A stretch of 64,000 nt of DNA from positions 1-64,000 of IMG/VR virus record IMGVR_UViG_3300012984_000016; one strand, written 5' to 3'. This DNA comes from a virus. The position numbers and the translations under genes were made by a program. Of the stretch, positions 222 to 25,698 are shown in pieces. How positions within the stretch are numbered: position 1 is the first letter of the stretch; each line of letters begins with the position of its first letter. Below the pieces are notes generated by a model, which was not told the DNA's origin, ran no database searches, and saw only the letters and a program-made list of their open reading frames with translations.

Positions 222-325
222 TGTGGCCCAAGGGTGAAACTTTCCAACATTCACGCATGGGTGTGTATCTCGCCTGCGTACAATAAAGGATGTGCAGGGG
301 ATCCGAACATCACACAACGTTAGGT

Positions 326-355
326 GTTTGTACGGGCTGCCAGTGCGGCATACTG
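326..355 (+). promoter_or_regulatory. putative early promoter of the amidoligase gene
   Basis: GTTTGTA-N16-CATACT upstream of the RBS and ATG at 407. Confidence 0.4.
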
Positions 356-406
356 ACAACGTACGACAGCCGGAGCGACCGGCACTCACCTAGCAGGGAG
401 GCTCAG

Positions 407-1294
407 ATGAGGAAGTTCGGCATCGAGGTAGAGTTCGGGGGTGACATCCCGCGCGCTATCAACCAGATCAACCAGGCGGGACTGTCCAACCGGACCGGTC
501 AGGTGGGCTACCTGACCCACGACACTGATGGGTGGGTCGTCAAGACCGATGCGTCAGTGTACAACGGTGGTGAGATGGTCGGGCCCCCGCTCGACTTCGA
601 CAACCCCGACCAGCGGGCACAGGTGACTACTGCCATCGAGGCTCTCGCTGCCTCTGGCGCAACCACCAACGAGTCCGCAGGCATCCACGTCCACATCGAC
701 GCGAGTGACCTGACCCCCGAGCAGATCGCCAACGTTGCTCGATGCTTCGTCAAGTTCGAGGATGTCATCTACCGCGTGGCGTCCTCTGGGTGGCGGAACA
801 TGCGCCCCGAGGCCCGTCGGTACGCGTACCCCTTGACCCACGAGCGGGTCAGCAAGATCGCCAAGGCGAAGGACCTCCCCACCCTTGCGCGAGCCTGGTA
901 CGGTCTCCGTCCCGGACAGGACCACTCGTACTCCGCACGTGACCACGGTCACGGCAGCCGCTACTGCGGTCTCAACCTTCACTCGTACTTCTACCGTCAG
1001 ACCATCGAGTTCCGGATCTTCAACTCGTCTCTCAACCCTGAGCGAGTGCAGGCCTACATCGCGATGTGCGTGGCGATCGTCGAGGATGCGCGACGTGGCA
1101 ACCGTCGCTCGTTCAACAAGCGCTACGCCCTGGGTGGCATGAAGTCGGGTGACACCTCGGACAAGGCAGCGTACCACCGCTTCCTCCAGGTCCTCCGCTA
1201 CAGCGCCGACCTGTCACTCGAAGACATGGGTCGCCTCAACAAGGTCTGGAAGGACTCCGTCCCCCAGGAGTACTTCTCCAGCCCCGCGTACTGA
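407..1294 (+). CDS. putative amidoligase (COOH-NH2 ligase family)
   Basis: FGIEVEF N-terminus, W..KTDAS...GGEMVGPPL, AGIHVHID, RYCGLNL, TIEFRIFNSSL; GGAGG RBS before ATG 407. Confidence 0.85.
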   Translation: MRKFGIEVEFGGDIPRAINQINQAGLSNRTGQVGYLTHDTDGWVVKTDASVYNGGEMVGPPLDFDNPDQRAQVTTAIEALAASGATTNESAGIHVHIDASDLTPEQIANVARCFVKFEDVIYRVASSGWRNMRPEARRYAYPLTHERVSKIAKAKDLPTLARAWYGLRPGQDHSYSARDHGHGSRYCGLNLHSYFYRQTIEFRIFNSSLNPERVQAYIAMCVAIVEDARRGNRRSFNKRYALGGMKSGDTSDKAAYHRFLQVLRYSADLSLEDMGRLNKVWKDSVPQEYFSSPAY

Positions 1295-1315
1295 CAAGTC
1301 CACCCAGGCTTGAGC

Positions 1316-1344
1316 GTTTGCACTGGACGCTCGCCGGGTACAAT
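1316..1344 (+). promoter_or_regulatory. putative early promoter
   Basis: GTTTGCA-N16-TACAAT with GGG before the -10 box. Confidence 0.6.
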
Positions 1345-1375
1345 ACATCCAGACCTACTGCAAGGAGACCGTACC

Positions 1376-2512
1376 ATGTGTGGCATCTTCGGTATCGCCT
1401 ACGGCCCCAAGGGGCCCGAGGGTGAGGAGTGGACTCCCGAGGAGTTCGCTCGGCTGATGTTCCCCGCGATCGAGCACCGTGGCCCTCACGCCTGGGGCTA
1501 CATGTACTGCAACTCGGACGCCGACACGATCGAGTGGGTGAAGACCCCTGGGTCGTGCAAGGCCAAGGGTGCCATGGACACCGTCGAGATCCCTGGCGAC
1601 GTGAAGTGGCTCGTGGGTCACGTCCGCTACGCCACGGGTGGCGAGAAGGCTCACCCCCGGTACAACCGGAACAACCACCCGATCCCCCACGGTGACATCG
1701 TCGGCGTCCACAACGGGGTCCTGCGGAACTGGCAGGGCATCCTGGACAAGACGGGCCGAGAGGACATCAAGAGCGGCGTGGACTCCGAGGCCATCTTCGC
1801 AGCGATCAACAAGTGGGGCATCCGCCCTGGGTTGCGCAAGATCGAGGGTGACATGGTCGCGGTGTGGGCCAACGTTGAGGAGCCGGAGGTCCTGCGGATC
1901 GCCCGCCTGGACGGACGACCCCTGGTGTACGCCACCACCGAGGCGGGATCCCTCATCTTCGCATCCGAGCAGGGTGTGATCGACGAGTGCCTCATCAAGC
2001 ACGGGCCGTACCACGACCTGGAGGACAAGACCAACTGGTTGATGACTGTCAAGCAGGGCAAGGTCTCCGAGCGTTCGCAGTACGCAGAGCCGATCAAGTC
2101 CTGGGCAGCCTCCGAGCGGTCCGGTCCGGCCCCGTCCTACTCCGGCGGCAGCCCGTTCCGGTCCTCCGTCCAGGACGCCTGGCCCATCGACAACCCGCTG
2201 TGGGATCCCCGAGGGATCACGGACCGCATGTCCGGGCAGCCTCGTCGGTACGGTCGCACCGGAGCCACTGCACCCAGCAGTGACGCCGTCAGCACATCCC
2301 CCACGCCTCACGGTGTGCCCGATCAGAAGATCAACCAGGTGGACGAGTTTGGTGGTTATTACATCGGGCAGAATACCTGGCAGGTGCCTGGGGGCGCTCT
2401 CCTGAACGCCACCCAGTACGTCAAGTGGGCCGTCCGCCGTGAGGTGAAGGCCCTGATCGAGTCCGGTGACATCGGTCTCGACGAAGCACTGACCCAACTC
2501 GAGATCGACTAG
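1376..2512 (+). CDS. class II (Ntn) glutamine amidotransferase
   Basis: MCGIFG N-terminal nucleophile Cys, HRGPHAWG, GHVRYAT, NNHP, HNGVL, VDSE, FASE; AAGGAG RBS. Confidence 0.9.
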   Translation: MCGIFGIAYGPKGPEGEEWTPEEFARLMFPAIEHRGPHAWGYMYCNSDADTIEWVKTPGSCKAKGAMDTVEIPGDVKWLVGHVRYATGGEKAHPRYNRNNHPIPHGDIVGVHNGVLRNWQGILDKTGREDIKSGVDSEAIFAAINKWGIRPGLRKIEGDMVAVWANVEEPEVLRIARLDGRPLVYATTEAGSLIFASEQGVIDECLIKHGPYHDLEDKTNWLMTVKQGKVSERSQYAEPIKSWAASERSGPAPSYSGGSPFRSSVQDAWPIDNPLWDPRGITDRMSGQPRRYGRTGATAPSSDAVSTSPTPHGVPDQKINQVDEFGGYYIGQNTWQVPGGALLNATQYVKWAVRREVKALIESGDIGLDEALTQLEID

Positions 2513-2525
2513 GGAGGACAGACCG

Positions 2526-3335
2526 ATGCGTTACCACCTTCACTTCAAGAACCTTCACCCCACGGTCCTGCGGGCCGCTGACGAACTCTTCCTCAGCAAG
2601 CCCTGGACCGGCACGGACGAGGAGCGGTACGTCAAGTTCCGCACGTTCCTGCAGCGGGCCTCGGACGCCTACTCCGTTCCGGCCCCGTCGTTCGAGGTCG
2701 ACACTGCCGGTGTCAACCACGGGCTGGCCCTCCAGCGCATGCAGTACGACCTGGGTCAGATCGACTGCGCTGACTTCTCGGTGATCAGCACCTTCCTGGG
2801 TCTCCGTGCCCACCTGCAGGCGCTGAACGTCGCGAACATCGACGGTCTCTCCGAGGCCGAGGACAACCTCACCGCACAGCGACTGCTGGCCAACGACGCC
2901 GTCGGCTGGGCGTGCTCCCTGTTTTACACGGTGCGCCCGACGCTGTTCCGCAAGGCGGTTCGCTCAGGGGTGATCCAGTTCGTCGCCCCGATCGACCTGC
3001 TCTCGTCCGCCACCCAGGAGCGTTACTGGGCCGGTGAGGTCGACATCAACGGCAAGGAGCGCACGCAGGTCTCGCCCCTGGACGAGGACGGTGTCGCGTA
3101 CATCCCCGAGGACGACGGTGACGAGCCGCCGATGGCAACCACGGGTGCTCTCGACCAGGAGGCAGGCCCCGCTCCGTACACCACCAACGAGGTGATGGAC
3201 ATCCTCGGTCGCTCCCGTTCGTACGTGTGCGCGCACGGCACTGACCTCGGGGGCACGCAGGACGAGGCCGGTCGCTGGACGTTCGCCCGCGCTGCGATCG
3301 ACACCATCGCCCAGGAGCAGGCCCAGCAGGGCTGA
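2526..3335 (+). CDS. hypothetical protein with C-terminal helix-turn-helix
   Basis: GGAGG RBS; C-terminal YTTNEVMDILGRSRSYV...GRWTF resembles an excisionase/MerR-like HTH. Confidence 0.65.
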   Translation: MRYHLHFKNLHPTVLRAADELFLSKPWTGTDEERYVKFRTFLQRASDAYSVPAPSFEVDTAGVNHGLALQRMQYDLGQIDCADFSVISTFLGLRAHLQALNVANIDGLSEAEDNLTAQRLLANDAVGWACSLFYTVRPTLFRKAVRSGVIQFVAPIDLLSSATQERYWAGEVDINGKERTQVSPLDEDGVAYIPEDDGDEPPMATTGALDQEAGPAPYTTNEVMDILGRSRSYVCAHGTDLGGTQDEAGRWTFARAAIDTIAQEQAQQG

Positions 3336-3356
3336 CCGCTCAACCCACGTAGAATG

Positions 3357-3390
3357 CTAGAGGGTCTCTGCAGCAGCAGGGGCCCTCTAG
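3357..3390. terminator. stem-loop, putative terminator
   Basis: CTAGAGGG..CTGC / GCAG..CCCTCTAG inverted repeat after the stop at 3335. Confidence 0.5.
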
Positions 3391-3411
3391 CCGTGCTTGG
3401 AAGGGACGACC

Positions 3412-3666
3412 GTGGATGCAGTAGAGGCCCGAGCGCGTAGGGCAGCCAAAGACGCGCTGGAGGACGCTGCTAGGAAGGTCCTGGAGGCGGCAGAGCGAGC
3501 AGGCAGGGCAGCGGACCGTGCTGACGGCATCCGTGAGGGAACGGTGACGGGTGACATGTTCGCCGCAGCGTCAGCCCACCGTGATGCTGAGCGCGAGGCC
3601 CATGGGGCACTGGACGCGCTGATCAAGAAGCAGCGAGAGACGTACAAGAAGTTCCCCCAACGCTGA
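3412..3666 (+). CDS. hypothetical helical protein
   Basis: ORF with phage-like codon usage in the + cassette. Confidence 0.6.
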   Translation: MDAVEARARRAAKDALEDAARKVLEAAERAGRAADRADGIREGTVTGDMFAAASAHRDAEREAHGALDALIKKQRETYKKFPQR

Positions 3667-3669
3667 GCG

Positions 3670-3697
3670 ATTTGAACATGTCCTCACCGGGTACAAT
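3670..3697 (+). promoter_or_regulatory. putative early promoter
   Basis: ATTTGAA-N15-TACAAT with CCGGG before the -10 box. Confidence 0.6.
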
Positions 3698-3723
3698 CTT
3701 TGTGAGATTCAAGGGAGGACATC

Positions 3724-5052
3724 ATGCCGGTCGATAACTCAGCCCTCGACAGAGCCTGGTACCAGGACAACCGTCCGATGGTACAGTTCCTCGAGATGGT
3801 GGAGGACGAGGGCGTCGGCTCAGCCCCGTGGGAGCGGTCTGCCGCAAGGTGGATCCGTCGCATCAATGAGAACGGTGCGCTGTCCCCGGGGCTGACCAAC
3901 TCTGGGTGGCGGATGATGCTCATCCACCGCTACGACCTGCCGGACCACGGTGCCGCCACCCTACGGTGGGCCCGTGCCAACTTCGATGTCTTCCACTATG
4001 TGTGGCAGAACCGGACGACCTACGCACTCACCTGGCAGGAGATCCTCGACGAGATCTTCCCGGACGCGGATGACCTGGAGGTGCTCCGTGCCAACATGCG
4101 GGTCCGCCAGGGCACGTCCGATCGCATCATCAATCCGGGTGAGCCCATCTACGATGAGGAGACCGGCGACCCTGGCAACCTGACAGCGATCCTCGGGCAG
4201 GCCCTGACGGACGCTGTGCGCAACGCTGAGACGATGGCCTCCGGTCTGGCAGCCGTAGGCAGGGCCGCTGACTTGGCAGCCACGACCGGCAGGCCGGTGA
4301 TCATCGGTGACCAAGGTGCCGCTGCACCCACCAGTGAGGCGCTGTCCACCGGAGCCTCTCGCACAACGGTGACCAACGGTCGTCGTCGGTACGCACCTGC
4401 CAGGTACAACGGTGGCATCGGCTCGCCCAACGGCGTGTACGAGATGGTGCTGTCACGCCAGGACCAGGCCGGTGACCACGAGGTCATCCAGCGGTTCCGG
4501 TACGACCTCTACACCGTGCAGAACGGTCAACTGGCGAACCTTCGCATCGTGCGGTGCGACCAGAACGGTGGCCGAGGGTTCGGTACCGTCCAGGAGGATG
4601 GCAACCTGTGGCTGTGGTCCCGCTTCGGTGACCAGTCCGGCGAGCGATGGATCCTGATGGGTGAGATGCTGCTCCGCGACCTGCAGAGGTCTCACGCAGC
4701 GGGTGACACCTTGTTCCGGGGCACTACCTACACGGTGCCTACCCGGCTCACGCGTGAGTACGGCCTCGGTGACATCGAGGTGTCGGTCAGGTTCGATCCG
4801 CACTGCAACCGCTGTAACACAGGGGCTGGGGTCCAGCACAACGGGGCACTGCAAATCACCCTGTGCGAGGACTGCCACGTGCGCCTCAGCAACCAGGGGA
4901 TCAGGGAGACCGCTGTCGCTGCTCAGCGCACGGCCCCGCGACTCCCTCGCCGGGAGCCTGCCCGCTCTCCCCAGGACGCCCCAGCGGTCGCCAGATCCAC
5001 GACAATGGATCGTCGGCGTCCGTCCCAGATCGATCCCACCAACCTTCAGTGA
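3724..5052 (+). CDS. hypothetical protein with C-terminal CxxC...CxxC
   Basis: 442 aa ORF, GGAGG RBS, HCNRC and LCEDCH pairs. Confidence 0.7.
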   Translation: MPVDNSALDRAWYQDNRPMVQFLEMVEDEGVGSAPWERSAARWIRRINENGALSPGLTNSGWRMMLIHRYDLPDHGAATLRWARANFDVFHYVWQNRTTYALTWQEILDEIFPDADDLEVLRANMRVRQGTSDRIINPGEPIYDEETGDPGNLTAILGQALTDAVRNAETMASGLAAVGRAADLAATTGRPVIIGDQGAAAPTSEALSTGASRTTVTNGRRRYAPARYNGGIGSPNGVYEMVLSRQDQAGDHEVIQRFRYDLYTVQNGQLANLRIVRCDQNGGRGFGTVQEDGNLWLWSRFGDQSGERWILMGEMLLRDLQRSHAAGDTLFRGTTYTVPTRLTREYGLGDIEVSVRFDPHCNRCNTGAGVQHNGALQITLCEDCHVRLSNQGIRETAVAAQRTAPRLPRREPARSPQDAPAVARSTTMDRRRPSQIDPTNLQ

Positions 5053-5416: not shown

Positions 5417-5601
5417 TGACCCGCCGACGCAGGCTGACACCAGCCAAGGAGCAGGCTCGCGTCGATGAGATCGCCCGCCTGAACGAGTACATGCGAAACC
5501 CGAACAGACCCACCACCATGCAGCCCTTGGTTGAGCCGGTGGATCTGTCCGGGTTCGATGAGCCGTGGTCCGTAGAAGAGTTCTTGGACGGCTTGGTCTA
5601 G
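5413..5601 (+). CDS. hypothetical protein
   Basis: ATGA overlap with the previous gene. Confidence 0.55.
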   Translation: MMTRRRRLTPAKEQARVDEIARLNEYMRNPNRPTTMQPLVEPVDLSGFDEPWSVEEFLDGLV

Positions 5602-5687
5602 GACGCTTCCTTGAGGTCCTCGAGACGCTGCTCGACCTTCGTGAGCACGCTCTCCCTCAGGGTGGTCAGGGTGTCAGTGCCGGACAT
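5598..5687 (-). CDS. 29-aa microprotein MSGTDTLTTLRESVLTKVEQRLEDLKEAS
   Basis: AGGAGGTG RBS 7 nt upstream of ATG; below the ORF-track cutoff. Confidence 0.5.
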   Translation of the reverse strand: MSGTDTLTTLRESVLTKVEQRLEDLKEAS

Positions 5688-5752
5688 TGCGTGTCACCTC
5701 CTAGGTCGTGTTGAAGACCATGATGACACATCATTCCCCGAATGTCTACGGG

Positions 5753-6016
5753 TTACGCAGGCGGATCTTGCGGGTCACGCTTGCGAGCGGGAACCCAACG
5801 CTTGCCCTTGCCTACCGTGAAGTGCCACCCAAGCGTGAGCGCAGCGCCGAGCAGGACCGGCCACACCAACCATGGGGACACCTCGTCGTGCACCCACTCA
5901 CTGACCGTTCCGCCGTCTCTACCGTCGGTGACACCACGGTACTCGTAGATGCAGAACGCTACGACCAGCACCGCCAGCAGGATGAAGAACAGCAGCCACC
6001 ACCAGCGAGCACTCAC
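5753..6016 (-). CDS. small 2-TM membrane protein
   Basis: WWWLLFFILLAVLVVAF and PWLVWPVLLGAALTLGWHF; overlaps the upstream gene. Confidence 0.65.
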   Translation of the reverse strand: MSARWWWLLFFILLAVLVVAFCIYEYRGVTDGRDGGTVSEWVHDEVSPWLVWPVLLGAALTLGWHFTVGKGKRWVPARKRDPQDPPA

Positions 6017-6999
6017 GCGAACGACTCCGCGAACACGACCGAGCCTTCGCCCTCGCCGGGGAAGGTGCGGTCTCCGTCGATGCCGGTGGCAGTCACCAGC
6101 ACGTCGTGGTCCCCGACGATGTCGGTGTCACCCGAGGCCCAGTTCACACGGACCTGACCCTTGTTCGTGTTCTGGTCGAGGACCGTGGCGTCCTTGACGA
6201 GCACGGTGTCGGTGCCGTCGTACTTGATCCGCACCACGACATCGCCGTAGGAGGACAGGTCCATCGGCTGACCCTTGTCGGTGAGAGTGATGACCAGCGG
6301 GGGCAGCGTGTCTCCGGCTCGGATGGCGTAGGGCATGTCGTACGGTCCCATCTTGAGATCTGCCTGGTTGGGTTCGATGATGATGCCCGGTCGGTCGACC
6401 GTGATGATCGTACCGATGTTCGCCCAAGGAGTACCCCAGGACTCCTGCGAAGGGATGGTGACAGGGGACACCTTGAGTGACAGGACCAGCGTCGGCAGCC
6501 CCCACGACTCGGCCGAGAGGATGGACTGCGGCACGGCCACGAAGTAGTTCGTCGCGGTCGGGACTCCCCACGACTCGGCGGTGGGAATCGAAGTCGGGGA
6601 CAGCGTGCGGGGACCTGGCGTGAAGGTCGGCTGGCCCCAAGCCTCCTGCGAGGCGATGGACGCAGGCGAGCACACCACGCCAAGAGCCGCTGTGGGCGTT
6701 CCCCAGGCCTCCTGAGAGGCGATCGAGGCCGGAGCCACCTGGAGCCCCTGCTGTGCCGTGGGAGAGCCCCAGGACTCCGCTGAGCCGATCGAGGTCGGGG
6801 ACGCCGTGAGCGGGCCCGAGGTCTTGACCGGCGTTCCCCACGATTCTGCAGACGCAATCGAAGTCGGGGTGGCCACAACGTTCGGACCCGTGAGGGTAGC
6901 GGTGGGCGTGCCCCATGACTCAGACGAACCGATCGTGGTCGGGTTGACCGTGATGGCGTTGGTGGTGACACCAACCTCCCAGACCTTGAGAGCACCCAT
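6013..6999 (-). CDS. virion-type protein with 8 SxE(S/A)WGxP repeats and a BppU-like Ig C-terminal domain
   Basis: tandem 22-24 aa repeats; C-terminus IRAGDTLPPLVITLTD..PMDLS...GQVRVNWASGDTD..G...RTFP; start coupled to the upstream stop. Confidence 0.7.
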   Translation of the reverse strand: MGALKVWEVGVTTNAITVNPTTIGSSESWGTPTATLTGPNVVATPTSIASAESWGTPVKTSGPLTASPTSIGSAESWGSPTAQQGLQVAPASIASQEAWGTPTAALGVVCSPASIASQEAWGQPTFTPGPRTLSPTSIPTAESWGVPTATNYFVAVPQSILSAESWGLPTLVLSLKVSPVTIPSQESWGTPWANIGTIITVDRPGIIIEPNQADLKMGPYDMPYAIRAGDTLPPLVITLTDKGQPMDLSSYGDVVVRIKYDGTDTVLVKDATVLDQNTNKGQVRVNWASGDTDIVGDHDVLVTATGIDGDRTFPGEGEGSVVFAESFA

Positions 7000-7439
7000 C
7001 AGTTGTTCACCGCCGCCTGCACGAGGTCGTAGAACTCCACGGCCCGCGCCTCGGCGTCCTCGTACGAGATGTCGGTGGTCCCACGCAGCGGAGGCGTGAT
7101 GCCGTACTTCCAACGAATGGTCTCGCGGTCACCAGCCGGAGCGAGCGAAGCCTCGTACATCTTGTTGGGCTGCTTCTGCTCCATGACCCACACGTACAGC
7201 GCCTTGAAGATTCCTTCGTCGCGGCGGTTCGGGATGGTCCACAGCATCATCGTGGTGAGGCAGGTCTTCACGCACTCCAGGCACGGGGTGCCCCGCAGTC
7301 CGTGGAAGTAGAAGAACGACACCACGTTGTTGCCGGGGTCGATCGCCACTGCCACCTCAGCCGTGGGGTCGATGGACGTTGAGGTCTGCTTCTCTTCGTA
7401 CGTCAGGAACCGGAACTCGGTACCAGCGTGGCCGCTCAT
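6999..7439 (-). CDS. putative GNAT-like acyltransferase
   Basis: 146 aa; MLWTIPNRRDEGIFKALY resembles GNAT motif A (h-V-x-P-x-x-R-x-x-G-I-x-x-x-L). Confidence 0.45.
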   Translation of the reverse strand: MSGHAGTEFRFLTYEEKQTSTSIDPTAEVAVAIDPGNNVVSFFYFHGLRGTPCLECVKTCLTTMMLWTIPNRRDEGIFKALYVWVMEQKQPNKMYEASLAPAGDRETIRWKYGITPPLRGTTDISYEDAEARAVEFYDLVQAAVNN

Positions 7440-8758
7440 CGCAGTCCCTTCTTCCTGATCTTCCCGGCTGGGCTCATAGGCAATGATCCCACCTTGGTCA
7501 TGGTCTTGGGCACAGCGTAGTGCGGAACCCAGGACCGCACGTACTCCAGCACCTGCGCCTCGGTGGCGTCTCCTTCGTAGAACCCCTGCACCTGTTGGCC
7601 GGTGCGACGGTCCGACACTCCGATGACTGCGGCGGCTCGCACTCCCGGATGCGTGAGCATGGCTCGCTCGACTGAGGTGGCGTACACCGTGTTGCCGTTC
7701 ACCAGGATCTTGTCCGAGCGCCTTCCTTCGATTACCAGTTCGCCGTCAGTAACACCCACGTAGTCTCCGGGTGCCACCCACTTCGGCATGTCCTGGATGC
7801 CAAGGAAGCCGATCTTCTTGTTCGCCGTCGAGTCCCCTCGCACGGAGATCTCACCGATGCCTGACTCGTCCGAGTCGATGCGCACCTCGATCGCATGGAA
7901 CGCAGCACCCACTGACCGAGTCGGCTCAGTGATCACCTTCGCAGAGATGAGCCCGCACTCAGTGGTCGCGTACAGGTTGACCAGTGCTACGTTCGGGAAC
8001 TGGCGCAGCCACTTCTCCTGCAACTCCATCGGCAGGTCGTTGCTGGACGAGTGGATCATGCGGAGCGACGGGAAGGTGGCCGAGGAGAAGCCCGCCTCGA
8101 TAAGTGAACGAATGATCGTGGGCCCCGCTGCTGCCATGTTACACCCATGGCGGTTGACCACCTCGGCGAACACCTGCGGTGTGACCTTGCGCTGGTCGAT
8201 GACCATGGTTGCTTCGTTCAGTGTGGTAAGCAGACCTACGATCGTCGCTACGCCGACAGCGAACGGAGTGCACACGAACACCCGCTGCCCACGGGAGTAG
8301 CCGTACTCGTACAGGTCGAGGTCGCGGCAGTACCGGGTCATCCTCGTGAGGTTGTGGCTGAAGATCTTCGGCCGACCCTCGGTCCCGGACGACCCGAACA
8401 TCAGCGCGCCGCCGTACTGGGAAGCAGCAGGGGACGATCTGGCGAGGTTCTGGGCGTACTCCGGGGTGCTGGGGTCCAGGCACCCGGTCCCGACGCCCAC
8501 GACCGCCCTGGCACGGGCCGTGCGTTTGATCGCTGAGCGCGCCATGCGAGGCAGGAAGCCGGGGAGCGGGAGGGCTGCGCGACCGGACCGCGCCACGCCC
8601 ATGAACAGTTCGTACGACTCGAGACGGTTGTCTGTTGTGACCGCTACGACCGAGTGGGGCGGAGCGATGTCACCTATGACTGATGACACTGCTCGGATCC
8701 GCTCGTCGAGTTCCGCTGCTGTGAGTGAGCGATCGCCCTCGACGATCGCTGGGGTCAC
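7436..8758 (-). CDS. AMP-binding (ANL superfamily) adenylating enzyme, acyl-CoA ligase-like
   Basis: P-loop SSGTEGRPK, NLYATTE, PGD, GRRSDKILVNG..VYATSVE, terminal PMSPAGKIRK catalytic Lys. Confidence 0.9.
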   Translation of the reverse strand: MTPAIVEGDRSLTAAELDERIRAVSSVIGDIAPPHSVVAVTTDNRLESYELFMGVARSGRAALPLPGFLPRMARSAIKRTARARAVVGVGTGCLDPSTPEYAQNLARSSPAASQYGGALMFGSSGTEGRPKIFSHNLTRMTRYCRDLDLYEYGYSRGQRVFVCTPFAVGVATIVGLLTTLNEATMVIDQRKVTPQVFAEVVNRHGCNMAAAGPTIIRSLIEAGFSSATFPSLRMIHSSSNDLPMELQEKWLRQFPNVALVNLYATTECGLISAKVITEPTRSVGAAFHAIEVRIDSDESGIGEISVRGDSTANKKIGFLGIQDMPKWVAPGDYVGVTDGELVIEGRRSDKILVNGNTVYATSVERAMLTHPGVRAAAVIGVSDRRTGQQVQGFYEGDATEAQVLEYVRSWVPHYAVPKTMTKVGSLPMSPAGKIRKKGLR

Positions 8759-9270
8759 GGGTGCGACTCGCGGTACGTGTTGAACTCGGCTCGGAGGTTC
8801 TGCAGGTCCTGACGGAACGACACCTGCTGGTTGGTCAGCGCAGTGAGACCGGCTGCCGCACGGTTGATCACGTCGAGGAAGGCCTGCATGGTCTGGAAGC
8901 CGATGAGGTCCGCGAGGAAGCCGATCTCATCGTCCGTCTGACCGTAGTCACGGAGCATGATCAGCGTCGGGATGATGGCCGGTGCGACGTTGGCGATCTC
9001 TTCCTTCGACACGTACCCGTCCTGAGTGGCCTCCCGCAGCGAGTTGAGAGCGCCACGCATGGAGGTGACGAGTTGGTCGCGAGTCACCCCTGTGCCGTTC
9101 GGCTGCGTGTCGGTGGCCGGGTAGCGCAGGGCGTCCTCGGCGATCTCAGCCGCGACAGCAGCACGGGGACCGTCGAGCAGTTCGAACCCAGCGGTGAGGA
9201 TGCTCACCAACTTGCTGCCGACCTCGAACCGCGTGACCGTGCCGTCACCGTTCATCCACTCGTGGAACAT
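8755..9270 (-). CDS. hypothetical protein
   Basis: 171 aa, coupled to both neighbours. Confidence 0.65.
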   Translation of the reverse strand: MFHEWMNGDGTVTRFEVGSKLVSILTAGFELLDGPRAAVAAEIAEDALRYPATDTQPNGTGVTRDQLVTSMRGALNSLREATQDGYVSKEEIANVAPAIIPTLIMLRDYGQTDDEIGFLADLIGFQTMQAFLDVINRAAAGLTALTNQQVSFRQDLQNLRAEFNTYRESHP

Positions 9271-9271
9271 G

Positions 9272-10165
9272 TCAACTCCTGACTACGATGAACGGACCGC
9301 CGTCGACGGCTCCTGAGGTCTGAGCAAGGTTCTTGATTGGTACACCGAAGGGCGAGTAGTTGACACTGGACCCACCGTTGGGGATGAAGAAGGGAGAGAC
9401 GGTGGTGAACGCGATGCCGTCGATGTTGGGGGACAGCCCAGAGTGCGACTGACCGAAGCCGTCGCCCGTGTCGAGGTAGGCCTCGCCACCCAGGTACACC
9501 TCCGCGAGCCGACCGCGCACACCCGAGTTGTCCTCACTGACCACGAAGGGCCAGTAGATGACATTCGACCCGCCGGTCTCCCTCTTGTTGATCAGCGAGC
9601 CGACTACGCCAGGGTTGATCACCGCCTGACGCATGGTCATCAGTTCGGCGGGCTCCCACGCCGCTGCGTTGAGCCCCTTCTTCACGTAGCACTTCTCGGT
9701 GCCCGTGTCGGACGAGGCGGACGTACCGGACATCGCCACGACCTGATCTGCCACCACGTTGTCCGAGAGGTAGTACGGCACCAGCGGGAACATGCCGAAG
9801 AACGATCGGGTGCTGCCCCATGTGGCGTCCTTGGCTCCGGTGCCAGCAGGGGCCGGTCCCTCCAGGCAGATGAACACATGGTTGGGACCGACACTCATCG
9901 TGAGAATGAAGGTGCCGGACAGCGAGGTGGCTCCGGTGTAGATGTACAGCGTCTTGTTCGAGGTGCCGATGGCCGAGCAGGTGATGGCAGCCGCCGCGAC
10001 CGCGTCGATGGTGAACGACACCAGCCGGTCCTGGCCCGAGGCTGAGGAGTTCGAGTAGGTGAACGGGTACGAGGCCCCAGTTTTGGTCCACCCTGCAGTG
10101 GACATCACCGAGTCGATCTGCGCCTGGATGCCCGTACCCACGACGGAGCCTGTGTAGAACGTCAT
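9272..10165 (-). CDS. putative virion structural / minor tail protein
   Basis: Gly/Ser/Thr-rich beta protein, GVRGRL motif, in a structural-looking cluster. Confidence 0.6.
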   Translation of the reverse strand: MTFYTGSVVGTGIQAQIDSVMSTAGWTKTGASYPFTYSNSSASGQDRLVSFTIDAVAAAAITCSAIGTSNKTLYIYTGATSLSGTFILTMSVGPNHVFICLEGPAPAGTGAKDATWGSTRSFFGMFPLVPYYLSDNVVADQVVAMSGTSASSDTGTEKCYVKKGLNAAAWEPAELMTMRQAVINPGVVGSLINKRETGGSNVIYWPFVVSEDNSGVRGRLAEVYLGGEAYLDTGDGFGQSHSGLSPNIDGIAFTTVSPFFIPNGGSSVNYSPFGVPIKNLAQTSGAVDGGPFIVVRS

Positions 10166-10167
10166 GA

Positions 10168-11589
10168 CTAGTTGGCCTCCACCAATTGAGAGATCTTGTC
10201 TCGGCCCAGGAACAGGTGACCCACCTGGCCCAGCCCGCTGTACAGCGGACCCTCGGCCACCAGGTAGTCGTAGGGCCAGGCTCCAGCAGCGAAGTCGGTG
10301 CCCGGGGCGCGCTCGAACAACACTTCATCGATCACGGCTGCGTTGTTGGGGGTGCTGTAGCAGATGCTGACACCGCCGAACACTCCCGGACCCGTGGCAC
10401 CGCCTGTGCCGGGTGTCGTGGCCTCCAGCACCTTGGTCCAGGGACCACTGATGGACGTGCCGGTGTACGTCTCGTGCCGCGTGAAGTTCTCGTACGGTGC
10501 GAAGTCCAGCGCGGTGGGGAACTGAGCCGCGTCGTACTTCACGTACGTACGGTGCTGGATGTACTGGCCCGAGGTGATCAGAGTCGCGTAGTTCTGACCC
10601 CAGATGAACCCACCCTTGGTGTCCGAGCCTGCGTACGCCACACCGTACTGAGCACCAGGCTCCGAAGAGTTGATGCCGATCTGCAGAGGTCCACCTACGT
10701 TGAACTGGATCTTGAACGTGCCGCTGACGTACTTGAAGGTGAGGATCGAAGCGATCCCGAGGTCACGGTTGTTGTCCGTCGAGTTCGAGTCTGGGCTGAT
10801 CAACTGAGTCAACACGTTGCTGTTGATGGACAGTTGGTTGCCGACGATGGTCAGGTTGGAGGAAGCACTCACGTTCGACAGCGGAGCCTGCGGAGGGATG
10901 TCGGCTGCCGTGCAGTCCCAGTTACCGTTGGCCCGGGCGAAGATGTCGTAGAAGTAGGAGCCGCGAGCGGTCGGGAACCCACGGTTGGCTGCGGCCTTGA
11001 CTACCAGCCGGTTGCACTTGGCACCAGAGACCGTGGACCAGAACCCTGCGCGGGTGTTGCCACGGGTGGTGGTCACCGGGCTCTGACTGCGGTCCGTGAT
11101 CAGAAGACGCAGGGTCTGCTTGCCGTTGATGCTGACGAACCAGCCGTTGCTGCGTGCACCAAGAATGACGGTGAACTCGGTGCCAGCCGGGATCCAGCAC
11201 CGAGCCTCTTGTCCGTTGTCCATGTACGTGCTGCCGAACGGCTTGCCCGTGGACTGCTGGGACTCGGACCAGAGCCGGAACACGAACCCCTCGCCGCCCG
11301 GGTCAGCGAACACACCGAAGTACACTCCGGCTGCACCGTCAGGAGCGGAGCCCGGAACTCCGATGCACACCCCCGCCTGATCCTGAACCGGCAGATCGGC
11401 CTCGACGATCCCAGCCCAGTTCGGGTTGTTCATCAACATGAACCGCTTGCTGCTGCCACTCATGGTGGTCGACGAGGAGACCGCCTGACCACCCGAGACT
11501 GAGTACCCGTTGTTGACGGACAGCGGGGTGAGATCTGCAGCGCCGACATTGAAGGGGGACGAGAAGACCTGGGTGAGAAGCGTAGTCAT
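10168..11589 (-). CDS. putative minor tail / receptor-binding protein
   Basis: 473 aa G/S/T/N-rich beta-sandwich-like composition. Confidence 0.6.
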   Translation of the reverse strand: MTTLLTQVFSSPFNVGAADLTPLSVNNGYSVSGGQAVSSSTTMSGSSKRFMLMNNPNWAGIVEADLPVQDQAGVCIGVPGSAPDGAAGVYFGVFADPGGEGFVFRLWSESQQSTGKPFGSTYMDNGQEARCWIPAGTEFTVILGARSNGWFVSINGKQTLRLLITDRSQSPVTTTRGNTRAGFWSTVSGAKCNRLVVKAAANRGFPTARGSYFYDIFARANGNWDCTAADIPPQAPLSNVSASSNLTIVGNQLSINSNVLTQLISPDSNSTDNNRDLGIASILTFKYVSGTFKIQFNVGGPLQIGINSSEPGAQYGVAYAGSDTKGGFIWGQNYATLITSGQYIQHRTYVKYDAAQFPTALDFAPYENFTRHETYTGTSISGPWTKVLEATTPGTGGATGPGVFGGVSICYSTPNNAAVIDEVLFERAPGTDFAAGAWPYDYLVAEGPLYSGLGQVGHLFLGRDKISQLVEAN

Positions 11590-11630: not shown

Positions 11631-12059
11631 CTACAACTTGAAGATCTTCGTGGCACCGTTGGACCAGGCGATGGTCACGTCACCACCGTTGGGGATGACC
11701 GGGAAGTTGGTGCCCGTGTCGATGTAGCCGATGAGACGCTGCGCGGTCGCAGCCACATCCGCGCCGCCGCCGACCGCCGAGGACTGGAACAGCAGCCCGT
11801 AGTGGTTGGATGCGTTGGTCGGGACCGCTGTGTACACCACGTCGTCAGCGTCGGCGACGCCACCCGTGATGGACTTCGTGGTCAGAGCGCCAGAGGTGAC
11901 GTGGAGCACGCCGCCTGCAGTGGTCAGGTCCGACACGAACTTGTGAGCAGCGTTGAACGTGTAGGCCCGAACGAGGGCCAACTTGATGACAGCGGTGTCC
12001 CAGTCGATCTCACCCGCCAGGAACCCCTCGCGGCCTGGATCGAACAGTGAGTTAGCCAT
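11631..12059 (-). CDS. virion structural protein
   Basis: MANSLF...IDWDTAVIKLAL...ADADDV...PNGGDVTIAW...IFKL, a pattern common in phage virion proteins. Confidence 0.75.
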   Translation of the reverse strand: MANSLFDPGREGFLAGEIDWDTAVIKLALVRAYTFNAAHKFVSDLTTAGGVLHVTSGALTTKSITGGVADADDVVYTAVPTNASNHYGLLFQSSAVGGGADVAATAQRLIGYIDTGTNFPVIPNGGDVTIAWSNGATKIFKL

Positions 12060-12142: not shown

Positions 12143-12481
12143 TCAGTTGACCTTGACGACGGCGACCGAGAGGCCGACGACCGACGAGTAGGTCAGGTAC
12201 GCGCGACCGTCGGCCGGGTTGGCGAACGACGAGCCCCGGAGCGGGCCGACGATGCGCTCACCCGTGGCGGGCAGCGTGACCGTGGCGTCCGGGATGGCGA
12301 CACCCGTGCCGGGGTCGACATCCGGGTACGAACCGATGGTGACGACCGCGACCGTGCCGGTGGTCTTGAAGTGGAGGTAGGTGCCGTCGCCGCACGGCAC
12401 CGTGTCGCCACCCGCGTTGCAGGTGTTGTACGTCGGGTTGGTACCGGCGAGGCTCGGAGCCTGTGCGGTCAGGGCTGCCAT
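12143..12481 (-). CDS. virion structural protein
   Basis: MAALTAQAPSLAG...GGDTVPCG...VTLPATGERIVGP; AAGGAG RBS. Confidence 0.65.
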   Translation of the reverse strand: MAALTAQAPSLAGTNPTYNTCNAGGDTVPCGDGTYLHFKTTGTVAVVTIGSYPDVDPGTGVAIPDATVTLPATGERIVGPLRGSSFANPADGRAYLTYSSVVGLSVAVVKVN

Positions 12482-12533
12482 GACATGTACTCCTTGGGGT
12501 GGGTCGGGGTGTGGCAGGTCTGCAACAAGTGTG

Positions 12534-13076
12534 TCACGTGCGGGAGGGCTCTTCCGTACTCGGCAGCGCAGCCAGTTCCCCAGCGAAGGCCGAAACGATG
12601 TACGACTCGAGAGCGATCCGGTCCTGTGGGCACAGGTGCTCACCCATGAATTCGAGCAACTTGGTCTGCTGTTGGCGGATGGCATCGACGTGCAGGAAGA
12701 ACTCGGCCTTGACGCCGAACAGGCCGAACAGTTTCGCTCGCTGATCCTGGCAGGCGGTGACCCGCGCGAGGCAGGAGATCTTCGTCTGCTCGGAGTTGGT
12801 CTTGTTGAACAACTTCCATGCCTCAGCCTTGACGAGGTCGAGTTCCTCCAGGGCCTTGATCGTGTTGCCGAGCACGTCCCGCAGCAGGTCCGGGTTGTTG
12901 CGGGCCTCGTCCCGGATCTTCTCGATGTACTCCTTGCGGTAGCGGCTGACCGTGCCGGGGCTGACCTCGATGTCCTTGGCGATCTCGATGTTCGAGAGGC
13001 CCTTCTTGATCCCCACGAACGCCTTCTGCTTGCGCTCGCCGATCTTGTACTTGGACTTGGTCTTGCCCTTGGACAC
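12534..13076 (-). CDS. HTH protein, probable terminase small subunit
   Basis: GLSNIEIAKDIEVSPGTVSRY HTH followed by helices and QRAKLFGL, as in actinophage TerS-like proteins; GGAGGT RBS. Confidence 0.55.
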   Translation of the reverse strand: MSKGKTKSKYKIGERKQKAFVGIKKGLSNIEIAKDIEVSPGTVSRYRKEYIEKIRDEARNNPDLLRDVLGNTIKALEELDLVKAEAWKLFNKTNSEQTKISCLARVTACQDQRAKLFGLFGVKAEFFLHVDAIRQQQTKLLEFMGEHLCPQDRIALESYIVSAFAGELAALPSTEEPSRT

Positions 13077-13235
13077 GACTACCTCCACGCTCAGAACGGC
13101 ACGATGCGTACTAGTTTCGTGCTAGTTCAAGCGTGATGGTGAACTGCCAGGCGAGCAAAGTAGTGCCTGACGTCGATGGTTTCTACTCGTTTCGAGTCAG
13201 AAGTAGTACGTAACTGACGATCGAGTAGGACGGAA

Positions 13236-15391: not shown

Positions 15392-16651
15392 CTATGGCCT
15401 AGTGCCGCCGTTAATGTTGATCGTGATCGACAGGCTCACGGTCGGCCCACCCTCGACGCTCGCGGGGAGGGTCACGGAGAACGGCTCCAGCGTCGCCTGG
15501 GCGGCTTCTCCCTGCTCGCCAGCCTCGGGGCTAGGCTCCACGGCGGCTTCGGCCTCCTCGTCCGTCTCCAGGTCGCTGAGTGCCTCGGAGGTCTCCTCCG
15601 GCGACGGAGGCTCGGGCGTGAGGCGCGGGCCGTTGATGAACTCGACCTCGCCCACCACGTCGGACTCGCAGTACAGCGCGGGCTCGAGAACCGACCGGCG
15701 TTCGAAGTCGTACTTCCGCACGCCCACGGTCTTGTGCCCCTGCCAGATGCGCGTGTACTTGAAGAACTCGCACAGCGTGGACTGGATGTTGCACAGCGAC
15801 AGGTCCAGCGGCTCCCCGTCATGGTCGAGAGGCCGGACGAAGGGCAGGTCGCGTGCTGCGAACTCCTCCCGTTGGTGCGCGTGCAGCCAGCGCATGACCA
15901 TGAGCAGGTTCCGAGGCTTCACGTCGGGTGCGAGCATCGCCCACATACCGCTGCGTGCGCCGGGTCCTGCTTGGGCCCACTGGTTCTGACCGTACGGGAG
16001 CACGGGGTCCGGTCCGGTGAGCAAGTCCACCACGATCTGGTGGGCCAGGAACTCGCCGAGGCCGGGGATGTCCTTGAAGACCTTGAAGATGGTCTGCACG
16101 TCCGGAGACGCCTCGACCCTTCGGTGGTACTCGGGCATCATGTCCGCGATCTTCACGAACAGGCGACCGACGTTCTCGATCTTGTCCTCGCCGCCCTCGT
16201 CGTTGTACCCCGCCACACGGTAGGCGTCACCGAAGACCTTGAACACGTCGGAGTCCTGCTCGCGGAGGACCTTGATGAACACGTCCACGTCGTAGTCGTC
16301 CACGGTGGATGCGACCAGCCGGTGCGTGGGCGGCTGGGATCCCATGAGACGGTACATCACGACGTTGAACATCTTGTCCAGGTCGGAGTAGTCGGCGTTC
16401 TCCACGATGGATGACACGACGTACTGCGTGCCGGGATCCAACTCGCGGTAGTTGTTGGTGATGAACTCGGCCTGCAGGATCGGGTCCTGAGTCCAGGGCC
16501 ACTCGCGCTGCATGCACACACGCCGGAACCACACGGCTTGACGTTCGGCCACGAACCGCCAGTACAGATCGTACTGGGTGGGGTCGAAGCAGGTGATGTC
16601 GAAGTCCTTCTCGGCGACGTACCGCTTGACCGAGTCCGTGGCCTCTGTCAT
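15392..16651 (-). CDS. 5-hmdU DNA kinase-family protein (aGPT-Pplase1, helical domain)
   Basis: FVAERQAVWFRR..WPWTQDPIL..FITNNYRELD, GLGEFLAHQIVVDL, GPGARSG, IQSTLCEFFKY. Confidence 0.8.
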   Translation of the reverse strand: MTEATDSVKRYVAEKDFDITCFDPTQYDLYWRFVAERQAVWFRRVCMQREWPWTQDPILQAEFITNNYRELDPGTQYVVSSIVENADYSDLDKMFNVVMYRLMGSQPPTHRLVASTVDDYDVDVFIKVLREQDSDVFKVFGDAYRVAGYNDEGGEDKIENVGRLFVKIADMMPEYHRRVEASPDVQTIFKVFKDIPGLGEFLAHQIVVDLLTGPDPVLPYGQNQWAQAGPGARSGMWAMLAPDVKPRNLLMVMRWLHAHQREEFAARDLPFVRPLDHDGEPLDLSLCNIQSTLCEFFKYTRIWQGHKTVGVRKYDFERRSVLEPALYCESDVVGEVEFINGPRLTPEPPSPEETSEALSDLETDEEAEAAVEPSPEAGEQGEAAQATLEPFSVTLPASVEGGPTVSLSITININGGTRP

Positions 16652-23863: not shown

Positions 23864-25054
23864 TTACTCGGACGGGACGTGCGATGCGAACATCCAGTCC
23901 AGGACTTCGGTGGGAACCTTCTCACCCGTGATCGGGTGCGGGCCACGGAGATGGTCGACCACGTCCTCGTGCCCCTTCTTGTGCCAGCGGTGGTAGTAGT
24001 AGAACCGGGCCTGAGCGAGGCCGAGCACCGGGTCCATGCAGCCGAGGAGGGTGTGCGCCGCCTTGAGGTCGAACCCCTTCTTGTACAGGGTGTGGGCCGC
24101 GAACGCCTCCAGCAGGCCGATCCAGGACACCGGCACTTCCTGGTGCGCGTTGAACAGCAGGGACTCGACCTGATCCCACTCGCACGTGCGGAGTGCCATC
24201 TCGTACGAGCGGACCGACGCGAGCACCTCGTCCGTGAGGTCGGCGGTCTCCCACGTCCAGTGACCACCGAAGCCCCAGCCGTCCTGCACCGCCTGGTACA
24301 GGTCGAACTCGGCGATGTCCTCGGCCTCCGCGTGGTGGTACTCGTAGGCGTGCAGGGAGTCGGCGACGTGCGTGTACGTGCCGACGGGGATGCCCAGGCG
24401 ACCGGCGATGTACCGCTGCATGGACATCCACTGGATGAAGTTGTAGGGCGTGCCCCACATGACATCGTTGGACCGCAGGATCTGCAGCCAGTCCAGGCGA
24501 CCGTCCCGGATCATCAGGTGCGCCATGAGGTTACAGGCGCGGTCCTTGGTCTCGCGGCGGACCTCCTCGAAGGCGTAGTTGTCAGTGTCCGAGGGGACGC
24601 GCATCGGCTGGTACGCCCGGTCGTGCGACGGCAGCGTGATGGTGAGCACGGCCTGGCGGGTCTCGGGGTCCTCGGTAAGCAGGCGGACCACGTCCTCGAT
24701 CTGGTCGTGACCGTGGGCGTAGCGCAGGCGGTAGCCGTACGCCGCGTTGAAGGTCTCACCGTCGTCGGAGTAGTCACCGATCTTGGAGTTGTAGTGCTTG
24801 AGCATCTCCACGTCGTTCTGCCCACCCAGGATCCACAGGACCTCGGCGAAGGCGAAGGTGACGTTGACCGGTCGGCCGAAGGCGGTGACCACCGGGCGCA
24901 GCGGGTCGTCGATGATGATCGTGGCGGGGTGGATCTCAAGGGTGGGTGCCACCCGAGAGGGGACCTGCTTGCCGCCGCCCATGACCGCCGCTACCGCAGC
25001 GGGGTACACGACGTTGGCGTTCGGCCCCTTGATGATCGCTTCGTTGGTGGTCAC
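23864..25054 (-). CDS. thymidylate synthase-fold enzyme, probable dUMP hydroxymethylase
   Basis: AYGYRLR, DPETRQAV, catalytic Cys (RACN), RSNDVMWGTPYN, SLHAY. Confidence 0.8.
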   Translation of the reverse strand: MTTNEAIIKGPNANVVYPAAVAAVMGGGKQVPSRVAPTLEIHPATIIIDDPLRPVVTAFGRPVNVTFAFAEVLWILGGQNDVEMLKHYNSKIGDYSDDGETFNAAYGYRLRYAHGHDQIEDVVRLLTEDPETRQAVLTITLPSHDRAYQPMRVPSDTDNYAFEEVRRETKDRACNLMAHLMIRDGRLDWLQILRSNDVMWGTPYNFIQWMSMQRYIAGRLGIPVGTYTHVADSLHAYEYHHAEAEDIAEFDLYQAVQDGWGFGGHWTWETADLTDEVLASVRSYEMALRTCEWDQVESLLFNAHQEVPVSWIGLLEAFAAHTLYKKGFDLKAAHTLLGCMDPVLGLAQARFYYYHRWHKKGHEDVVDHLRGPHPITGEKVPTEVLDWMFASHVPSE

Positions 25055-25698
25055 TTGGAACCCTCCGGGTAGGTGAAGCCGCGCCGCGTGAGGTGCTCAG
25101 CGATGAACGCGGTGGTCTCGCCCCGGGGAAGGTGCGGGACCAGGATGGTGATGTCCTCGTGGCGCTGGGCCAGGTACTCGTAGTTCTCCAGCACCTGCTT
25201 GTTGTTGCTCTTGTCCTTGGCGAACGGCTCCAGGAACATGAACACGATGTCGGGCATGCACCCTTGCGTGGGCAGCCGAGCGAGGTCGATGAACTCGTCC
25301 GCTGTCATCTGGGTTCGCATGTCCTTGACCCACCCGTAGGCGAAGGTCGAGAACCAGTTGCGATCCAGGAACACCGACTCGGCGTCGGAGTGGAGCCGGG
25401 GTACGATGACGTTCTCGTACATCTCACAGTGTGCCGCAAGGTGCAGGAACTGCCGGGTGAGCGGGAGGTGCTTCTTCCAGTTCACGTCCTCGGTGAGGCC
25501 GTAGATCTTGGCACCGAGTTCCGAGCCGCCGCTGGGCGAGTGCGTGAACACCGGCTTGCCGGAGTACAGGGGCTCGCCCTGCTCGGGCGCGTACACGGCC
25601 CGCTCGAAGCGGTCCATCTGGGTTGACTTGCCTGTGGCGTCCAGCCCCTCGAACACGATGAAGGAGGAGGGCTTGAGGATCAGCGGCAACTTGAACAC
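25051..25698 (-). CDS. tmk: thymidylate/dNMP kinase
   Basis: FEGLDATGKST P-loop, LDRNWFSTFAY, PDIVF. Confidence 0.85.
   Translation of the reverse strand: MFKLPLILKPSSFIVFEGLDATGKSTQMDRFERAVYAPEQGEPLYSGKPVFTHSPSGGSELGAKIYGLTEDVNWKKHLPLTRQFLHLAAHCEMYENVIVPRLHSDAESVFLDRNWFSTFAYGWVKDMRTQMTADEFIDLARLPTQGCMPDIVFMFLEPFAKDKSNNKQVLENYEYLAQRHEDITILVPHLPRGETTAFIAEHLTRRGFTYPEGSK

Follow-up and report, generated by a model that had tools for sequence, protein, structure and literature searches.

The DNA analyzed here, referred to as the window, comprises the first 64,000 nucleotides of the IMG/VR virus record IMGVR_UViG_3300012984_000016, which is 74,305 bp long and ~92% complete according to CheckV. 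This report concerns two neighboring minus-strand genes at 6999-8758, one encoding a 440-aa adenylating enzyme of the ANL superfamily (hereafter the ligase), the other a 146-aa protein with a GNAT-like motif (hereafter the mini-GNAT). Open reading frames (ORFs) of the window were listed in all six frames and the junction sequences were then read directly. Both genes lie within a run of minus-strand ORFs (8755-9270, 7436-8758, 6999-7439, 6013-7113 and 5753-6016), to which the following genes were assigned:

8755..9270, minus strand: 171-aa protein with a C-terminal coiled coil, directly upstream of the pair
7436..8758, minus strand: ligase, a 440-aa ANL-superfamily adenylating enzyme, compact and acyl-CoA-ligase-like (Pfam AMP-binding and AMP-binding_C)
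6999..7439, minus strand: mini-GNAT, 146 aa, with a CxxCxxxC loop, the segment RRDEGIF and an invariant Y95 (structure model, Foldseek and VIA-align)
6013..6999, minus strand: 328-aa fibrous protein with repeats and a BppU-like immunoglobulin-like (Ig) domain (PHROG 'minor tail protein')
5753..6016, minus strand: 87-aa predicted single-pass membrane protein, last of the gene chain (hydrophobic N-terminus in the translation)

The stop codon of the 171-aa gene overlaps the start codon of the ligase gene (GTGA), and the ligase and mini-GNAT genes are joined by ATGA. The 328-aa gene starts at ATG 6999 within the junction TGATG, and the 328-aa and 87-aa genes share a further GTGA. The ORFs and junctions confirmed the chain of overlapping start and stop codons described in an earlier account of this DNA (the sequence-only reading). 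Judged from these overlaps, the whole chain from 9270 to 5753 is predicted to be translationally coupled.

The ligase scored above the gathering thresholds of both Pfam models of its superfamily, AMP-binding (4e-33, 115.1 bits against a cut-off of 29.9) and AMP-binding_C (5e-12, 47 bits against 24.5). Every core motif was present: SSGTEGRPK (A3), YATTE (A5), GD (A7), GRRSDKILVNG (A8) and PAGK (A10). A search of 5.8 billion proteins yielded six close relatives with 40-52% identity, four of them full-length (439-442 aa) and two cut. The core motifs are kept in these six closest homologues, and all seven members of the clade share D332, G345, R346, R347, S348, D349, K350, G432 and K433. By its motifs and domain matches the ligase is thus an intact, compact two-domain ANL enzyme, in line with the earlier claim of a 440-aa ANL protein carrying all core motifs. 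Below the clade, identity falls to 31% or less, and the proteins found are ordinary, mostly actinobacterial acyl-CoA ligases of ~480-540 aa, the window ligase being ~60 residues shorter than usual acyl-CoA ligases. Sequence comparison therefore places the ligase in a clade of its own, which falls into no named subfamily and whose members are unusually short for ANL enzymes.

The best profile matches of the ligase were fatty or medium-chain acyl-CoA ligases. The best NCBIfam model was a long-chain-fatty-acid-CoA ligase (7e-40), which reached 136.7 bits where 476 are required, and all 25 NCBIfam models listed for acyl-CoA ligase equivalogs (FadD3, MenE, FadD13-like and others) scored far below their curated cut-offs. 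Among PDB sequences the closest were FadD13, a fatty-acid CoA ligase, the malonyl-CoA synthetase MatB and adenylation domains of nonribosomal peptide synthetases (NRPS), none of which stands out. At A4 the sequence is PFAVGVA (PMAVGAG in the consensus of the clade), without the Asp that binds the alpha-amino group. At this position, the FA of the ligase aligns with the FH of FadD13, and amino-acid-activating domains carry the Asp. The amino-acid adenylation model TIGR01733 gave 85 bits against a cut-off of 317. An NRPS-type amino-acid adenylation domain was rejected as the class of the ligase on account of the missing A4 Asp and the TIGR01733 score below cut-off. Since the alpha-amino-binding Asp is absent, a non-amino carboxylic acid is more likely to be the substrate, as predicted from the A4 residues.

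The ligase gene contains no AGCT site where 4.3 would be expected, and its GC content at third codon positions (GC3) is 0.80, typical of the genome. Both properties suggest that the gene is a long-standing resident, which agrees with the earlier view that it follows the genome's AGCT avoidance and is probably not a fresh pickup from a host. In a tblastn search of 50,697 phage records, the collection used for all phage-record searches in this study, nothing exceeded 28% identity to the ligase. The matches listed were ordinary CoA ligases, most of them in unannotated records and several in records of evidently bacterial sequence (such as Mycobacterium avium and Salmonella enterica). Genome contigs scanned with the ligase clade gave distant cyanobacterial ANL genes only and no prophage copy, and single-protein scans of viral contigs found nothing.

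A word-based search with the 146-aa protein returned only the protein itself. However, an ORF of 141-145 aa adjoins every ligase relative whose locus was read. A profile built from five such small proteins picked out 40 proteins among 1.84 billion representatives. One of them, P0141 (2870 aa), was discarded as spurious, having no CxxCxxxC motif and no match to a profile of the other 39 sequences. The remaining 39 representatives constitute the mini-GNAT family; they measure 118-158 aa, all but one 132-158 aa. In their alignment C53, C60 and Y95 are invariant and C56 is kept in more than 90% of the sequences, the consensus being C..CT..CA.G..VWTR.dYR.QGIF..L..W. These residues point to a conserved functional site, in which the cysteines might bind Zn or Fe-S or one of them might be catalytic.

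An AlphaFold2 (AF2) model of the mini-GNAT derived from the family alignment reached a predicted local distance difference test score (pLDDT) of 91.9 and a predicted template modeling score (pTM) of 0.86. In the model a single short helix is all that remains of the alpha1-alpha2 acceptor lobe, a 13-residue loop with the three Cys (Cys3 loop) is inserted between beta3 and beta4, and the C-terminus is extended by a long helix. Foldseek against the PDB gave 49 matches at E <=0.001 (best E 2e-5), and every match listed was a GNAT-type acetyltransferase or a structure holding one (RimI, AAC(6'), Hpa2, SSAT). With VIA-align, 306 chains scored Z >=8; every entry listed had a GNAT fold, with Z 8.7-10.1 over residues 5-125, and the best was PanZ (4crz_B; Z 10.1, 105 residues, 2.9 Å). 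Matches in the viral structure library BFVD were NAT_SF/GNAT proteins, and two family members carry the JGI label 'GNAT superfamily'. The 146-aa protein is therefore predicted to adopt a minimal GNAT fold, and by sequence the family is a previously unnamed one with a conserved Cys3 loop. The GNAT fold proposed for 6999-7439 in the sequence-only reading was thus recovered by Foldseek, and the motif-A-like segment noted there proved real and is kept across the 39-member family.

The family differs from textbook GNATs in motif A (the beta4-loop-alpha3 element), which reads R-x-x-G-x-F (RRDEGIF in the window, consensus YRxQGIF) as opposed to the canonical Q/R-x-x-G-x-G/A. In a PDB sequence profile search this region matched the solved putative acetyltransferase 3dsb, which itself reads RRKGIF (E 0.05). 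None of the Pfam GNAT models (PF00583, PF13508 and similar) reached threshold, the best being Acetyltransf_7 with E 0.16 in one of five members.

The pair was followed through seven independent loci, namely the window, L012, L013 (of which L015 is a second assembly), L014, L016, L092/L093 and L094. L092 and L093 are near-identical over the pair and have a GC content of 49%; L094 (GC 64.5%) comes from a 103-kb virus. The ligase and mini-GNAT genes are adjacent in all seven, and hence the pairing is not due to chance. The small gene follows the ligase gene in the window, L013/L015, L016, L092/L093 and L094, and precedes it in L012 and L014, and identity between the window ligase and those of L092-L094 is no more than 23-25%. 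Adjacency that persists despite such divergence and a local swap of gene order argues for functional coupling, with selection for linkage beyond inherited order. A natural ANL-GNAT fusion was found in a metagenome (P0101, 629 aa). It has a C-terminal GNAT domain and an ANL part that is 26% identical to the window ligase over its full length; hhalign placed the mini-GNAT family on the GNAT domain in the right register but weakly (probability 13.6%). Complex prediction for the ligase and the mini-GNAT gave a score of 0.00 without controls and says nothing for or against binding.

Upstream of the pair three genes recur, encoding proteins of ~470-520 aa, ~290-330 aa and ~160-180 aa (window, L012, L013, L092/L093, L094). 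The order of the resulting five-gene block, [~500][~300][~165][ligase][GNAT], is kept between phages that differ by 15 points in GC content. In the window the genes upstream of the 171-aa gene are:

12534-13088, minus strand: 184-aa helix-turn-helix protein heading the accessory virion block (weak PHROG matches to RNase E and sigma-factor families)
12143..12484, minus strand: 113-aa protein, first gene of the accessory virion block (phrog_16194 'tail protein', 6e-15)
11631..12059, minus strand: 142-aa phage protein (phrog_644, 9e-25)
10168..11589, minus strand: 473-aa beta-rich protein, first of the conserved five-gene block
9272..10165, minus strand: 297-aa gp47-like protein (AF2 model and VIA-align to 8rk3_c)

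The 113-aa gene probably starts at the internal ATG 12484, because the long ORF 12143-12685 overlaps the upstream helix-turn-helix gene by 150 nt; the phrog_16194 match spans residues 69-179 of the long ORF.

The 297-aa protein was modeled with AF2 from a seven-sequence alignment (pLDDT 71, pTM 0.78). Compared with 48,161 chains by VIA-align, the model matched 8rk3_c, from the baseplate of phage JBD30, with Z 15.7 over 232 of 317 residues, the next chain reaching Z 2.9. Chain c was read as gp47 because its 317 residues agree with the length of gp47 (318 aa), whereas gp48 has 307 aa and gp50 273 aa. The model thus indicates that the 297-aa protein shares the fold of the tail-fibre-forming gp47 over most of the chain. 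In JBD30, gp47 and gp48 together form the three lateral tail fibres with which the phage grasps type IV pili (PMC11445458). JBD30 gp47 is labeled a nitrilase in that study; no nitrilase was among the 50 entries listed for the 297-aa model, of which one chain exceeded Z 3. BFVD neighbors of the model include several 'virion structural protein' entries. The protein is conserved in L012, L013, L092/L093 and L094, and had no match in the phage records. The likeness to JBD30 has its bounds: identity is 9%, the annotated JBD30 tail region is without a ligase or GNAT, and in the window the block lies apart from the main tail module (42-55 kb).

The 473-aa protein has homologues at the same position in L013 (39% identity) and L012 (26%), and in L092/L093 its slot is filled by a ~518-aa ORF with no tblastn match to the window protein. 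Its ESM Atlas neighbors are jelly rolls similar to LamG and 3-keto-disaccharide hydrolase, a weak lead. Homologues of the 171-aa protein were found by tblastn in L013, L014 and L094, and by position and alignment in L012 and L093; its PDB sequence matches were coiled coils only. Downstream of the pair, the 328-aa protein contains eight repeats of 22-24 aa (P-x-S-I-x-S-x-E-S/A-W-G-x-P) followed by the BppU-like Ig domain. Its ORF (6013-7113) matched PHROG 'minor tail protein' families (7e-16 and 5e-9) and, weakly, BppU_N (E 0.044). In L093 a collagen-like 822-aa protein is encoded upstream of the pair and a BppU-like 118-aa protein downstream, and in L094 a short collagen-like protein is encoded downstream. 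The L093 block lies ~5 kb upstream of a confirmed portal gene and the L015 block just upstream of large ORFs, putatively packaging genes; in the window, the fibre module is 30 kb from the main tail genes. The pair thus belongs to an accessory (lateral) tail-fibre/baseplate module. The earlier placement of the pair between tail-like proteins holds, given the gp47 fold (Z 15.7) and the PHROG tail families matched by the products of 6013-7113 and 12143-12685.

Two further observations concern this module. L093 encodes tandem paralogues upstream of the fibre block (L093:2713-3084 and 3151-3597; phrog_240 'head protein'), which occupy the slot of the phrog_644 protein of the window (11631-12059). 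A small single-pass membrane protein ends the operon in two lineages, its gene coming directly after the pair or the fibre gene, with 87 aa in the window and a weakly similar 107 aa in L013/L015 (L013:7604-7927). It could be a holin-like or an exclusion protein.

From these data we propose that the ligase and the mini-GNAT work as a single functional unit within the accessory tail-fibre module. Late in infection, the ligase would use ATP to turn a carboxylic acid, non-amino and possibly fatty or otherwise aliphatic, first into an acyl-AMP and next into a thioester, for which acyl-CoA is the simplest candidate. During assembly, the mini-GNAT would use this to acylate a protein of the same module at an amine, either a Lys side chain or the N-terminus. 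The acceptor might be the gp47-like protein, the 473-aa protein or the repeat protein encoded downstream, and the outcome would be a virion with an acylated fibre. We give this two-step activation and transfer onto a fibre-module protein a probability of roughly 0.4. An acylation system had already been suggested in the sequence-only reading; its intact ANL enzyme, GNAT fold, virion-gene setting and long residence have been borne out, while the two-step decoration of fibres is a step that we infer. That lateral tail fibres of diverse uncultured siphoviruses undergo dedicated acylation, possibly lipidation, by a compact ANL enzyme and a Cys3-loop mini-GNAT is a tentative and rather doubtful extension.

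Several points weigh against fibre acylation. The motif-A loop of the mini-GNAT ends in Phe and not in Gly/Ala, and the close homologue in L012 has His in place of the motif-A Gly; because of this atypical motif A and the missing Pfam GNAT match, binding of CoA by the mini-GNAT is no more than putative. The best structural neighbor, PanZ, is a CoA-dependent regulator and not a transferase. Gene order shared by related phages is in part a matter of descent and cannot alone reveal the target. Finally, the orthologous but deeply diverged ligases of L093 (6706-8004) and L094 (6718-8007) keep a canonical P-loop (SSGSTGxPK), the TE of A5 and the Asp of A7, but lack the A8 hinge Asp (GRSVKK and GRKVKK), and the A10 Lys is missing from the GK position in both, L094 having no Lys at all in that stretch. 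Canonical two-step chemistry may hence fail in part of the module family.

The same enzymology would serve if the pair were active but aimed outside the virion, either acylating part of the host envelope (a receptor, a lipid, or an amine linked to teichoic acid or arabinogalactan) or making a small N-acyl metabolite. Modification of the envelope would block superinfection or stop progeny from re-adsorbing to debris, hence the place beside fibre genes, and receptor-modifying phage genes often adjoin tail-fibre genes. The small membrane protein that closes the operon here and in L013/L015 fits such a role, as does the distant similarity of the ligase to DltA as well as to fatty-acid ligases. However, in their translations both enzymes lack a signal peptide or membrane segment and would have access only from the cytoplasm, the block encodes no carrier protein or membrane acyltransferase, and the tight coupling is to structural genes. 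We consider a target of this kind unlikely.

The match to PanZ/YhhK (Z 10.1) raises the question of whether the mini-GNAT is a transferase at all. It might be a CoA- or acyl-CoA-binding adaptor or regulator, either PanZ-like or acting like AcuA/Pat through the A10 Lys of the ligase, and the ligase alone would then do the chemistry, for example by direct amide formation from the acyl-adenylate. The reduced acceptor lobe and the Phe that replaces the motif-A Gly/Ala are consistent with this, and control of ANL enzymes by GNATs through Lys acetylation is well established. PanZ is a similarly minimal GNAT (4crz, 2k5t; 127 aa, CoA-binding). Yet it is only 13% identical to the mini-GNAT and has no Cys3 loop, and its partner PanD is not an ANL enzyme. 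Chains within 1 Z unit of the best are moreover to be regarded as tied, and many true acetyltransferases at Z 9-9.6 are among them. The invariance of the Tyr and Cys residues hints at a role in catalysis or in binding a metal. AcsA with AcuA or Pat offers a parallel in which a small GNAT is encoded beside an ANL enzyme, but the phage pair belongs to a virion module and not to acetate metabolism. Since the mini-GNAT gene is kept beside the L093 and L094 ligases, which lack the Lys at GK, the A10 Lys is not its general target, and an AcuA/Pat-type regulator was rejected as the class of the mini-GNAT for the same reason. A purely regulatory or adaptor role is thus distinctly unlikely.

The substitutions in L093 and L094 would also suit proteins that have lost catalysis altogether, both folds having been exapted as fibre-assembly chaperones or structural baseplate parts; the pair occupies the slot usual for fibre chaperones. 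Against this, the catalytic ANL motifs are all invariant in the window clade at only 40-52% identity, and the P-loop, A5 TE and A7 Asp retained in L093 and L094 fit purifying selection on ATP chemistry. We regard such exaptation as quite improbable.

The last alternative concerns DNA. The window phage encodes a set of candidate nucleotide-modifying enzymes adjoining the DnaE polymerase gene:

15392-16651, minus strand: 5-hydroxymethyldeoxyuridine (5-hmdU) DNA kinase helical domain (4e-54)
23864-25054, minus strand: thymidylate-synthase-like enzyme
25051-25698, minus strand: dTMP-kinase-like enzyme

Judged by these genes, the phage probably hypermodifies thymidine, and the pair might acylate an amine installed on 5-hmdU. 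Phage PaMx11 gp48 is a GNAT that acetylates 5-aminomethyl-dU (5-NmdU; PMC8989533), and Mom is another GNAT-fold enzyme acting on phage DNA, which also binds metal (PMC7261163). In the known thymidine pathway, however, the acetyltransferase gene lies beside kinase and amino-acid:DNA transferase genes (PMC8989533), whereas the neighbors of the mini-GNAT gene are the ANL gene and fibre genes. PaMx11 gp48-type clustering is not seen for the mini-GNAT, whose pair is 6.6 kb from the kinase gene with unrelated genes between. The block always travels among fibre genes. It lies upstream of the portal gene in L092/L093 and of a putative one in L013/L015, and its neighbors at other loci are fibre or packaging genes; no kinase match was found in the 103-kb virus of L094, which is only 70% complete. 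Acylation of hypermodified DNA, one of the targets suggested earlier, is weakened by the association with fibre genes and not with the 5-hmdU kinase gene, and it is very improbable.

The chemistry of the proposed acylation of fibres is familiar from cellular systems. In mammalian glycine conjugation (ACSM2B with GLYAT) and in lysine N-acylation for mycobactin (FadD33/MbtM, MbtL and MbtK), activation of a carboxylate by an ANL enzyme is followed by transfer of the acyl group to an amine, for which a GNAT-fold enzyme is responsible. Mycobactin acylation, moreover, is actinobacterial and uses a fatty acid. In contrast to both, the phage pair is viral, is coupled to tail-fibre genes and has no carrier protein, and its GNAT of ~145 aa carries a Cys3 loop and has no Pfam GNAT match. 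The toxin-activating acyltransferases HlyC and ApxC have a GNAT-like fold and acylate Lys residues in repeat proteins, taking acyl groups on acyl carrier protein from the host without a ligase. Their small genes adjoin that of the secreted repeat protein to which they attach a fatty acyl group, just as the gene of the repeat-rich fibrous protein directly follows the mini-GNAT gene, but no sequence or specific structural match to them was seen for the mini-GNAT. No description of a phage ligase/GNAT pair with tail-fibre genes was found in the literature, and no cultured phage carrying one was found.

To our knowledge, glycosylation is the main form of covalent virion decoration by phage-encoded enzymes described to date. 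If the proposal is true, acylation would join it as a new class of post-translational modification of the virion, one that could tune adsorption to lipid-rich actinobacterial envelopes and would offer a handle on the adaptation of fibres to waxy or otherwise difficult envelopes. Whatever the target, the mini-GNAT family, the clade of short ANL enzymes and the five-gene fibre module, which is recognizable in metagenomes, stand.

The remainder of the window characterizes the phage and its probable host. The GC content is 64% throughout, and the products encoded include a WhiB-like regulator, a RuvC-like resolvase, a Cas4-type exonuclease, a DnaE-type polymerase and RecA. The virion and lysis genes outside the fibre module are:

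42-64 kb, minus strand: siphovirus morphogenesis module (portal, major head, major tail, Dit-like and 1413-aa tail-tip-like proteins)
40.3-41.3 kb: endolysin

Judging by the WhiB gene and the GC content, the host may be an actinobacterium. Megablast against the phage records gave no DNA match to the window, and no close cultured relative was found there, the portal protein reaching only ~27% identity at best. AGCT is absent from the 64 kb, where ~188 sites would be expected from trinucleotide frequencies. Such a complete lack suggests that the virus strongly avoids an AluI-type restriction site. CTAG occurs at half its expectation, and other 4-bp palindromes are near theirs.

Neither a scan for promoters and terminators nor folding of the convergent gap 5595-5760 yielded a signal above background. 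A plus-strand cassette at 290-5052, which is absent from the other loci with the ligase/GNAT pair, converges on the fibre/enzyme operon. It encodes an Amidoligase_2 protein (9e-35) and a class II glutamine amidotransferase, followed by 269-aa and 442-aa proteins without family match. Proteins identical to the 146-aa and 297-aa products (P0001 and P0161) are also recorded on an 83,674-bp contig, and therefore a longer assembly than the 74,305-bp record exists for the same or a near-identical phage.

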